From NCBI GenBank assembly GCA_964610335.1, contig CAZSVP010000002.1:146887-210886 (forward strand): DNA of 64,000 nucleotides, read 5' to 3'. Made by a program: the position numbers. Positions 22,601 through 25,600 of the stretch are shown one piece after another; within the stretch, counting starts at the first letter, position 1, and each line of letters starts with the position of its first letter. The stretch is from an uncultured Candidatus Saccharibacteria bacterium (lineage in GTDB: Bacteria > Patescibacteriota > Saccharimonadia > CAILAD01 > BJGX01).

Positions 22601-25600
22601 CACAAATATGCTCAACCAATAATGGGGTTTTGTAATCTTGGTGGGTCTTCTGAAAATAACTACTTACTCGACGTTTGAGGATTGAAGCTTTGCCAATATA
22701 AATAATCTTACCGTTAGCATCCTTAAAAAAATACACACCAGGAGCCTTGGGCAACTGTGAAAGTTTATTTTTGAGTTTATTAGACATTACAGTAAGTATA
22801 GTGTTAATTGACAAGACCTGAAAGTATGTTGGGTGATTTGATTGACATATCAGGAAAATATTGTATGATGAGGGCGACCTTCTCCGTATCCTCTACGCAG
22901 GGAAAGGAGGTGAACATGGACATAGACGTTGACCTCGCCGTAATGCTATATCGCCATAAGGATGATGGCAGTCAATACGAGTTGGCCCAAATCCTTCTGG
23001 CATACGCCAGCGCAACCCAGCCCAAGCACAGTGAACAGTTTGCTCTGCTCTCGGCACGGCCGTGGTCGCTCCCAAGCCGCATACTGTTCGATATCGACGC
23101 CGACCCCAAACCGTGGAAGGCTGCAATCGAACAATGGCTACTGAGCAACAACGAACACCGGGAGGCGTCATGATGTTCACGACAAATCGGAGATCCCTAG
23201 GCCTGGCACAAGGCCAGCGCTTAGGGCTCCGCAGATACAAGAACATACCCCTTACACAGAGGGGCGCTTTATTTTAACAATCGTTTTAGATAATGACCAG
23301 TAAATGACTTATCAATCTCGGCTATTGTTTCTGGCGTGCCCTCACCAACAATTTTGCCACCGCCACTGCCACCCTCTGGGCCAAGATCAATTACCCAATC
23401 AGCACATTTAATCACATCCAGATTATGCTCAATTATTAGCATTGAGTTACCCATAGCCACCAAAGCGTTTAGTACTTCCAACAACTTGCGGACATCTTCA
23501 AAGTGAAGACCAGTGGTAGGCTCGTCAAGAATATATAGTGTTCGACCAGTGGCACGCTTGCTTAGCTCACTGGCTAGTTTAATGCGCTGGGCCTCACCAC
23601 CGGAGAGCGTAGTAGCTGGCTGGCCGAGCTTGATGTAGCCAAGCCCCACCGAGTTAAGTGTTGCAAGCTTACGATTGATAGTCGGGATGTTGCCAAAAAA
23701 CTCACAGGCTTCTTCGACGGTCATCTCCAATACATCAGAAATATTCTTGCCCTTGTACGTGATCTCTAGAGCTTCACGGTTGTAGCGCTTGCCATGACAA
23801 GTCTCACAAGTCACATAGACATCTGGCAGGAAATGCATTTCAATCTTGATGATACCGTCGCCCTTGCAAGTCTCACAGCGACCACCTTTGACATTGAAGC
23901 TAAATCGTCCAGCGTTGTATCCTCGTATTTTTGCCTCTGGCACCATCGCAAATAACTCACGGATGTCGTTAAACGCACCAGTGTAGGTTGCTGGATTGCT
24001 TCGTGGTGTACGACCAATTGGGCTTTGGTCGATATCGATTACTTTGTCGAGATGTTCCATACCTTGGATCTCAGTATGTTTACCAGCAGGCTCTTGGCTA
24101 CGATGATACTCAGCACTGAGCTGGCGAGCTAAGATGTCATTGATAAGACTAGATTTGCCACTACCAGACACACCAGTTACTACAGTCATAATCCCTAGCG
24201 GTATTGCTACATCCACATTCTGAAGATTGTGCTCAGTGGCACCAATGATTTTCAGGTACTTACCAGTTGGTTTACGGCGTGTCGACGGCAAATCAATCTT
24301 CTTGGTACCACTTAAATACTGCCCTGTGAGTGACTTCTTGTTTTTAGCTACCTTGTCTGGCGTACCTACAGCCACTACTTCGCCGCCATGTTCACCGGCC
24401 AATGGACCAATGTCGACCACATAGTCCGATGCTCGTATAGTATCTTCATCATGCTCTACTACTATCACAGTGTTGCCTAGGTCACGTAGCCGCTTAAGCG
24501 TAGTGATTAGTCTGTCGTTGTCACGTTGATGTAGCCCAATCGATGGCTCATCGAGAATATACAATACTCCCATCAGACTTGAACCAATCTGTGTGGCAAG
24601 ACGAATGCGTTGTGCTTCGCCACCGGCTAGGGTATTTGCTGCGCGATCGAGAGTGAGATACCCCAGACCCACATCGTTGAGAAACTTGAGTCGAGCACAC
24701 ACTTCTTTGAGGATTTGCTTGGCAATTATTGACTGCTGGTCGGCTAGCTTGAGCGATTGATAGTACTCAGTAGCTTGCTCCACAGTCATCTTTACAATGT
24801 CAGCAATCGATCGATCATCGACAGTAATTGCCAGTACTTCCGGCTTGAGGCGTTTGCCCTCGCAGGTAGGACAAACCTTCTGGGTCATATACTTTTCTAT
24901 CTCTTTTTTGACAAAATCACTATCTGTTTCACGATAGCGCCGCTCGAGGTTTGGGATTATGCCTTCAAACTTAGTCTTGTAAGTACGGCCGGCTGGGCCG
25001 GGTACTTCGATTACTTCTTCGCCGGTTCCATAGTAGAGGAAATCCAATTGTCGATCATCAAGATTGCCGATTGGTCCATCAAGACTAAAATTGTGAGATT
25101 TGGCTACAGCATTGAGGAGCTTAGTGTACCAATTGAGTCGCTGGGTTGTTCGACTCCAGGGTCGGATTGCTCCCTCAGCAATGGAAAGCTTGCGATTAGG
25201 TACTAACAGTTCGGGGTCAACTACTAGAAGCGAGCCCAATCCAGTACAGGTCTGACAAGCGCCATGAGGTGAGTTGAAGCTAAATATACGTGGCTCAATC
25301 TCGGGTAGTGCATAAGTGCTACCTGCCGAAGTATAGTGCTCGGAGTATAAGTTCTCAGCTCCACTCTCAGCATCAAGTACCACCAACACTCCTTCACCCA
25401 GGTGCAAGCTGGCCTCAACTGACTCTACCAATCGCTGCCCCATATCTTTTTCTATCACTAGTCGATCGGTTGCTACCTCGATGGTATGCTTCTTCTTACC
25501 ATCGATATCGGGTAGCTCGTCGATAGGGAATAGTGTGCCATCGAGGCGAACTCGACTATAGCCGGCTTTTTGTAACTCACTTATGAGATGGCTATGCTCA

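Follow-up and report, generated by a model that had tools for sequence, protein, structure and literature searches.

The ORF85 gene and its expression signals

The DNA analysed here, referred to throughout as the window, is a stretch of 64,000 nucleotides from an uncultured Candidatus Saccharibacteria bacterium, and this study concerns a small open reading frame (ORF) within it, ORF85, that lies between uvrC and uvrA. ORF85 occupies positions 22916–23173 of the + strand, comprises 85 codons and ends in a TGA stop codon at 23171–23173. Its divergent neighbour upstream is uvrC (21315–22787, − strand), which has Pfam GIY-YIG and UvrC_RNaseH_dom domains; its convergent neighbour is uvrA (23269–26082, − strand; stop codon 23269–23271), which has UvrA_DNA-bind and UvrA_inter domains, and uvrB follows at 26564–28558. 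The clustering of the three uvr genes described in an earlier note on this sequence was confirmed for all three by Pfam. The same note had placed ORF85 in a gap of 455 nt, and this figure depends on the uvrC start: the uvrC–uvrA gap is 454 nt if uvrC begins at TTG 22814, but 481 nt with ATG 22787, the start chosen by gene callers. Its description of the gene as GC-rich applies in a relative sense only, by comparison with the whole window (55% versus 45.7%) and by GC content at third codon positions (GC3; 0.64 versus 0.29–0.53 for ordinary genes of the window).

Substitution patterns point to a coding function. ORF85 differs from its 71%-identical homologue P0002, encoded at the related locus L002, by 22, 14 and 45 substitutions at codon positions 1, 2 and 3, respectively, and by zero indels. 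The ratio of non-synonymous to synonymous substitution rates (dN/dS) for ORF85 was 0.04–0.18 (Nei–Gojobori, informative pairs); that for uvrA was 0.016, in the single pair for which uvrA dS was unsaturated. Conservation, on which the earlier note had let its case depend, was complete, with the ORF kept in 17/17 sequences examined. These comprised two distant homologues and 15 of the 21 members of the cluster formed at 90% identity around the window's own sequence, the 21 being drawn from many samples. The start assigned by gene callers varies, giving products of 85–115 amino acids; however, the longer calls (102–115 amino acids) place the start before the −10 box and lack conservation, and the 85-amino-acid form is therefore taken to be correct. 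On this comparative evidence we regard ORF85 as a genuine protein-coding gene under purifying selection.

The gene appears to be equipped with its own expression signals. A sigma-70-type promoter is predicted at 22842–22869 (+ strand), with a −35 box TTGACA (22842–22847), a 16-nt spacer and a −10 box TATGAT (22864–22869), an 11/12 match; matches of at least 11/12 occur five times in the window, counting both strands, against ~1.3 in shuffled sequences. Both boxes are kept in relatives, as TTGACA/TACGAT in L099, TTGCAT/TACAAT in L002 and TTGCAA/TACAAT in L004. With the transcription start placed by the position of the −10 box, the predicted 5′ untranslated region (5′UTR) would span ~40 nt (22876–22915, + strand), and its folding is no better than that of shuffled sequence (z = 0.3). 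The Shine–Dalgarno site AGGAGGTG (22905–22912, + strand) stands 5 nt before ATG 22916; the arrangement AGGAGG-N4-9-ATG occurs six times in the window on both strands, and AGGAGGTG-N5-ATG is kept in all lineages. Thus the promoter and AGGAGG that the earlier note attributed to the ORF were found where it had placed them and are retained in relatives. Since promoter, Shine–Dalgarno site, ORF and terminator (described below) are all kept in related lineages, their combination is far beyond chance, and the sequence evidence supports the view that ORF85 is a self-contained expression unit with a promoter whose activity is predicted. Reading of the upstream sequences revealed no evident SOS-type operator common to uvrA, uvrB, uvrC and ORF85. 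The divergent intergenic region between uvrC and ORF85 also holds a 24-nt direct repeat (22804–22827 and 22838–22861; 71% identical, 34 nt apart) with ATTGACA present in both copies, which may reflect duplication of the −35 element or the binding of a regulator.

Two further possibilities were considered at the 3′ end of the coding sequence. In P0017, a member of the 90% cluster, the TGA stop is changed to a sense codon; this adds nine residues (WCSRQIGDP) before a TAG inside the hairpin arm described below. A selenocysteine insertion sequence or other signal for stop-codon read-through was rejected, as the read-through frame is not kept between the window and L002/L004. In the window, the ORF85 stop codon shares bases with an AUG (AUGA) located 5 nt after GGGAGG, and this AUG opens a frame of 36 codons (23168–23277) that runs through the hairpin and terminator to a TAA at 23275–23277. 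The corresponding frames in L002 and L004 have 8 and 7 codons (MNSPQIGS and MQPQIGS) and end at a UAG in the hairpin arm. A conserved mini-ORF at this overlap was rejected, given the different frame and length (36 versus 8 and 7 codons), and it is probably not coding.

The structured 3′ end and the junction with uvrA

Downstream of the stop codon lies a conserved sequence, CACGACAAAUCGG (23178–23190, + strand), immediately 5′ of a hairpin and with its last three bases, CGG, forming the base of the stem; this 5′ flank occurs once in the window, both strands considered. Within it, ACAAAUCGG (23182–23190, + strand), which begins soon after the ORF85 stop and whose last three bases open the hairpin, is invariant in the window, L099, L102, L002 and L004, despite the L004 protein being only 38% identical. 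The hairpin itself (23188–23231, + strand) has ~18 bp and is followed by a CUGCAGA-like sequence and then by the terminator. Its folding is more stable than expected from shuffled sequence (RNAfold z = −5.1 in the window and −4.4 in L002), and RNAalifold applied to three sequences found compensatory double changes in 7/17 pairs. Across five distinct sequences, 92.9% of cells pair and 10/17 pairs change on both sides, with the qualification that fitting of the alignment to the model biases the result towards structure; none of 500 shuffles reached the observed values and slid controls paired in 22–52% of cells.

The hairpin has G.U pairs in the + sense only, and the + strand of this region folds more stably in 4/5 lineages (in L002, −42.9 versus −29.1 kcal/mol), the two strands being about equal in L099; the hairpin is therefore assigned to the ORF85 mRNA. 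A covariance model built from it matched a single site in the window and nothing at other loci; 14 matches from a pattern scan for the motif of the 3′ untranslated region (3′UTR) in JGI contigs were set aside as chance, as the covariance model accepts none of them. Rfam returned no match at E ≤ 10 in 22700–23400 and, across the window at gathering thresholds, only tRNAs. Judged by its covariation, the hairpin qualifies as a structured RNA element without an Rfam match, new and unnamed.

An intrinsic terminator follows at 23247–23275 (+ strand), with a stem at 23248–23264 and a T-run at 23268–23275. The overlap of the terminator with the uvrA stop codon, as the earlier note described it, holds for the T-run, which covers 23269–23271, but not for the stem. 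A hairpin with T-run is present in every lineage; the stem sequences differ, always pair through compensatory changes and always overlap the end of uvrA, with the T-run covering the uvrA end in each lineage. Read on the minus strand, the stem leads into U-rich sequence, so the terminator probably also ends uvrA transcription, being bidirectional and shared by the two genes. As the T-run lies inside the coding end of uvrA in all lineages, the ORF85 and uvrA mRNAs must overlap at their 3′ ends. This organisation resembles the bidirectional terminators and 3′UTR stem-loops of convergent bacterial genes, including overlapping 3′UTRs processed by RNase III: the genes are 83–95 nt apart, the GC-rich stem is U-rich on both strands, an extra long stem lies upstream and the transcripts must overlap. 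Unlike ordinary terminators, the extra hairpin of ORF85 has invariant flanking motifs and a strand preference.

The convergent arrangement with uvrA, at 83–95 nt, is found in all three lineages of the family, and the tail-to-tail junction is kept in L002, L004, L099–L104 and L003. The earlier note had suggested looking for homologues beside uvr genes elsewhere, and every ORF85 homologue found directly adjoins uvrA. On the upstream side uvrC is adjacent in the window, L099, L102, L103 and L104, but in L002 a gene for a 978-amino-acid Gly-rich protein takes the place of uvrC, and in L004 ~2.3 kb separates the ORF85 orthologue from uvrC and holds a remnant of a gene of this 978-amino-acid type and two further ORFs. 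This large, apparently extracellular protein is encoded directly upstream of the ORF85 orthologue (L002 1–2937; L004 6434–6733); it has at least 978 amino acids in L002, with no Pfam hit, is a fragment in L004 and is absent from the window lineage. A toxin–immunity pair formed by ORF85 and this protein was rejected on those grounds (Gly-rich, without a Pfam hit or a toxin-like C-terminus, absent from the window lineage), as was the broader proposal of a polymorphic-toxin immunity gene, uvrC being the upstream gene in the window and the upstream protein of L002 having no toxin-like end.

In contrast to the ORF85–uvrA junction, that between uvrA and uvrB is variable, the spacer holding a 120-amino-acid orphan ORF in the window, a gene of 336 amino acids in L002 and a 32-amino-acid call in L004. 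The orphan ORF of the window (26201–26563, + strand; no family hit) is divergent from uvrA and abuts the uvrB stop; it recurs in L102 as an ORF of 124 amino acids.

At 18 more distant Saccharimonadia uvrA loci, homologues of ORF85 are absent; other genes or almost nothing lie downstream of uvrA, and no copy of the ORF85 hairpin is present. In 7/18 of these loci uvrC is downstream of uvrA in the same direction, 0.3–4.8 kb away; the longer intervals hold ORFs read as DedA-like, L25-like and rhodanese-like, and the shortest (279 nt) holds none. Because ORF85 is absent from these 18 loci and lies at uvrA in all three of its lineages, we conclude that a single clade acquired it in its ancestor and has kept it attached to uvrA ever since.

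The protein, its family and its history

The predicted ORF85 product is an acidic protein of 85 amino acids with a molecular mass of 9.7 kDa and an isoelectric point (pI) of 4.9; it is hydrophilic, and pI values of 4.5–5.1 were obtained overall. Reading of the sequence revealed neither cysteines nor a signal peptide or transmembrane segment. An AlphaFold2 model, built from just three sequences, predicts a bundle of five helices with a predicted local distance difference test (pLDDT) score of 88 and a predicted template modelling (pTM) score of 0.79. The most conserved stretch, LSARPWSL-S--LFDI (residues 45–60), would comprise the end of helix 3, the next loop and most of helix 4, and the C-terminal Ala-Ser is likewise conserved. 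Fold searches, including BFVD, yielded generic helical-bundle matches only and no informative structural neighbour; the nearest known systems were small all-helical inhibitors and adaptors such as Legionella Lpg2149 (PDB 6k3b_B), and also a helical domain of Cas10/Csm1 (6ifk_A). No catalytic or DNA-binding signature was found in ORF85. Taken together, these features would fit a small binding subunit, neither an enzyme nor a DNA-binding protein.

Homologues were sought with a word-indexed search of 5.8 billion protein clusters and a full HMMER profile search of 1.84 billion representatives. The family consists of three clusters: the window's own, P0002 (71% identical) and P0003 (38–39% identical, 99 amino acids). 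There were 0 matches in Pfam, NCBIfam, PHROGs, PADLOC and PDB sequences; tblastn gave 0 matches in phage genomes and 0 in plasmids, IMG/VR gave 0 and BFVD nothing with E < 1. Scans of GTDB representative genomes, JGI metagenome contigs and IMG/VR returned no ORF85 locus; nevertheless, P0010, a member of the 90% cluster, is present in JGI/IMG on a 300-kb contig. The best uvrA match in GTDB representatives, among the matches listed, was 68% identical, and a literature search found nothing relevant to ORF85. As far as these searches reach, the family is confined to one narrow clade of uncultivated Saccharimonadia.

The earlier note had described ORF85 as a cassette inserted between the two uvr genes. 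We found no target-site duplication, no terminal or flanking repeats around the gene, no second copy and no integrase-like ORF nearby, and orthologues occupy the same place across saturated synonymous sites, all of which speaks against that description. A mobile element or integron cassette was accordingly rejected: there are no repeats, integrase or attC cores, and the gene is single-copy with a fixed position. The likeness to integron cassettes (an ORF with an attC hairpin) lies in a short ORF followed by an imperfect palindrome of which the structure rather than the sequence is conserved. Unlike them, ORF85 has its own promoter, a single copy and a fixed position, with no integrase or cassette array, and reading of the sequence revealed no R″/R′ core sites (RYYYAAC/GTTRRRY).

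The composition of ORF85 is likewise long-standing. Its GC3 is 0.63–0.69 in five lineages in which uvrA GC3 is 0.43–0.54, and dS between the more distant of these five is ~1–2, that is, saturated. GC3 has been held high across saturated dS and is therefore maintained, not the leftover of a recent transfer. The ten small ORFs scanned in the window to see whether high GC3 marks highly expressed genes included no ribosomal-protein genes.

The ORF85 tree disagrees with the uvrA tree (L002 3016–3273, L004 6805–7104 and window 22916–23173 for the ORF85 copies). L002 and L004 are 90% identical in uvrA and 41% in ORF85; for the window and L002 the values are 83% and 71%. The L004 copy, which carries a 14-residue C-terminal insertion, either diverged fast or was replaced.

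ORF85 is one of several GC3-high orphans in the window. Five more islands of orphan ORFs with GC3 of 0.58–0.90 lie at 3464–4364, 14452–14973, 45362–46365, 53272–53697 and 61493–62320, none with a Pfam hit. Four of their ORFs, one from each island other than 45362–46365, had no match in phage genomes. The 173-amino-acid ORF at 14452–14973 has only five homologue clusters (69–97% identity), and some islands carry promoters of their own, close to consensus (3435, 53149). The island ORFs are unrelated to ORF85, as tblastn across the window found nothing and nor did profile comparison of three of them, and the GC-rich cassettes are also unrelated to each other; paralogy of ORF85 with these cassettes, or with the orphan ORF between uvrA and uvrB, was rejected on finding no relationship. 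A purH gene (62296–63840, − strand; AICARFT_IMPCHas and MGS domains; 63% GC, GC3 0.79) belongs to a high-GC island of 2.4 kb beginning next to tRNA-Gln (61294–61368) and looks like a transfer from a high-GC donor; a 528-amino-acid ORF opposite it is probably a high-GC shadow ORF.

Elsewhere in the window, downstream of uvrB, two adjacent ORFs (28610–29251 and 29298–29603, − strand) share a near-identical N-terminus of ~40 residues with a membrane anchor (MPTKKSSTLAKQQ-QHFKWYYAIILIGIVAIVGIL) but differ beyond it, which points to a surface-protein gene duplicated in tandem. Two DUF1761 genes lie in tandem at 48836–49705 (− strand).

Explanations for ORF85 and their biological meaning

The account that we consider probable is that ORF85 is a resident, clade-restricted orphan gene, transcribed on its own, that encodes a small acidic helical binding protein and has a structured 3′ end. 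A strong sigma-70-type promoter and a perfect Shine–Dalgarno site would give rise to an mRNA of ~400 nt encoding a soluble, acidic five-helix-bundle protein of 85 amino acids; the 3′ end of this mRNA would carry the invariant ACAAAUCGG, the ~18-bp hairpin and the intrinsic terminator. The protein would most likely serve as a small adaptor or inhibitory subunit bound to some other macromolecule, and the hairpin would most likely stabilise or process the mRNA 3′ end and block read-through from uvrA. ORF85 would stay at uvrA by way of their common, overlapping termination region: the final codons of uvrA supply the U-tract, and a rearrangement or insertion between the two genes would therefore damage both.

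Several points weigh against this account. The function it assigns to the protein is reached by exclusion, and the hairpin is flanked by invariant motifs whose degree of conservation exceeds what a simple stabiliser would need. The family has only three deep lineages, among which adjacency to uvrA could reflect phylogenetic inertia or could be functional. The account leaves unexplained why ORF85 GC3 stands at 0.63–0.69 against backgrounds of 0.43–0.54 despite saturated dS, and divergence of the L004 copy has far outpaced that predicted from the species distance, which would fit an arms race rather than a housekeeping adaptor.

Of the alternatives, the one that survives best, although we think it unlikely, is that the important product is the RNA. 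The 3′UTR (ACAAAUCGG, hairpin, CUGCAGA and terminator) might be released as a small RNA (sRNA), or the overlapping 3′ ends of ORF85 and uvrA might couple the levels of the two genes through RNase III cleavage of the duplex or transcriptional interference, the protein possibly being a second function. The motifs flanking the hairpin stay invariant while the protein falls to 38% identity, the hairpin combines strong covariation with strand-specific G.U pairs, and the position of the T-run in the uvrA coding end in all lineages means that the mRNAs must overlap. The 3′UTR also resembles sRNAs of the CpxQ, SroC and DapZ type in having a conserved, largely single-stranded motif, a hairpin and the mRNA's own intrinsic terminator; unlike these, it has no complementary site in the window, where no complementary 9-mer target was found. 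Overall 3′UTR identity, however, is 57–75%, no higher than that of the coding sequence, no Rfam family matches, a minus-strand reading can partly account for the conserved flanks, as U-rich tails of uvrA terminators, and the protein itself is clearly under selection.

A little less likely again is a role for the protein in nucleotide-excision repair, which it would assist or modulate in this clade alone, for instance as a small acidic binder of UvrA or of the UvrA–UvrB loading complex. Every homologue adjoins uvrA in a uvrC–uvrA–uvrB neighbourhood, even where the other flank is rearranged, and the ORF85 protein is small, acidic and helical; small acidic helical proteins are a common format for protein inhibitors and adaptors. 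The adjacency is already accounted for by the common terminator, however, and ORF85, being convergent with uvrA and divergent from uvrC, is co-transcribed with neither. Moreover, it has no similarity to known repair proteins in Pfam, NCBIfam or PDB, the 18 other Saccharimonadia uvrA loci without ORF85 indicate that UvrA has no general need of it, and only three independent lineages bear on the question. The hint at a DNA-repair modulator in the earlier note therefore gains nothing beyond the position of the gene. We also consider it improbable, to a slightly greater degree, that ORF85 and its 3′UTR work together as a regulatory module of this clade with a physical link to uvrA, in which the protein would bind UvrA or UvrAB, or the overlapping 3′ ends and hairpin would tie uvrA mRNA levels to ORF85 transcription.

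More doubtful than any of these is the proposal that ORF85 is horizontally acquired cargo (a phage moron, an anti-defence gene or an orphan immunity gene) in a hot-spot, one of several GC-rich foreign cassettes. Its appeal comes from the GC3 of 0.64 against 0.29–0.53 for ordinary genes, the five other GC3-high orphan islands and the foreign-looking purH beside a tRNA, the variability of the uvrA–uvrC interval across Saccharimonadia and the fast evolution of the L004 copy. But phage genomes, plasmids, IMG/VR, PHROGs, PADLOC and BFVD gave no match, so the anti-defence role at which the earlier note hinted found no similarity to defence or phage families; protein-cluster searches found no donor homologue; and there is no integrase, repeat or target duplication. 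Nor do the surroundings favour it: there is no adjacent toxin, the 978-amino-acid protein upstream in L002 having no Pfam hit and nothing toxin-like on reading, and the cassettes are unrelated to one another. Finally, a fixed position and a GC3 maintained across saturated dS argue against recent transfer.

Hardly credible, lastly, is the view that no protein gene exists here and that ORF85 arose by chance in GC-rich spacer DNA or overlies a non-coding RNA, RNase P RNA or tmRNA for instance. A ~400-nt GC-rich segment with promoter and terminator in an AT-richer genome does resemble a structural RNA gene, and gene callers are split over its start (85–115 amino acids). But a structural RNA gene (RNase P RNA, tmRNA or 6S) was rejected when Rfam, at gathering thresholds and at E = 10, and ARAGORN, which found no tmRNA, returned nothing. 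The start and Shine–Dalgarno site are conserved, the longer calls open before the −10 box, and this view is already refuted by the distribution of substitutions over codon positions and a dN/dS of 0.04–0.18.

Returning to the account of a resident orphan gene, ORF85 falls into a well-known category, that of lineage-specific orphan genes for small proteins, albeit unusually well validated and with one unnamed conserved RNA hairpin. It resembles the orphan small proteins of Patescibacteria, or the candidate phyla radiation (CPR), in being short, without a Pfam or NCBIfam family and restricted to a narrow clade; one member of its cluster is a ‘hypothetical protein’ at JGI/IMG/ENA and the window's own sequence is nameless at NCBI. 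By comparison with most such orphans, it has comparative proof of coding and selection and a confident fold, together with conserved expression signals, a conserved junction and a conserved 3′UTR structure.

If this modest reading is right, ORF85 provides one well-validated case among the many orphan small proteins of Saccharimonadia and other candidate-phyla bacteria, and indicates that at least some of these are genuine proteins under selection that have a confident fold and conserved expression signals. It also corrects the impression of a foreign cassette, its high GC3 being a maintained trait of an old resident gene and no mark of recent insertion. Should the link to uvrA prove functional, ORF85 would be a lineage-specific regulator of excision repair, and might also reveal a new 3′UTR RNA element in organisms in which stress regulation is almost unknown; a regulatory module at this junction, if true, would represent a previously unknown tuning of excision repair in a reduced-genome epibiont.

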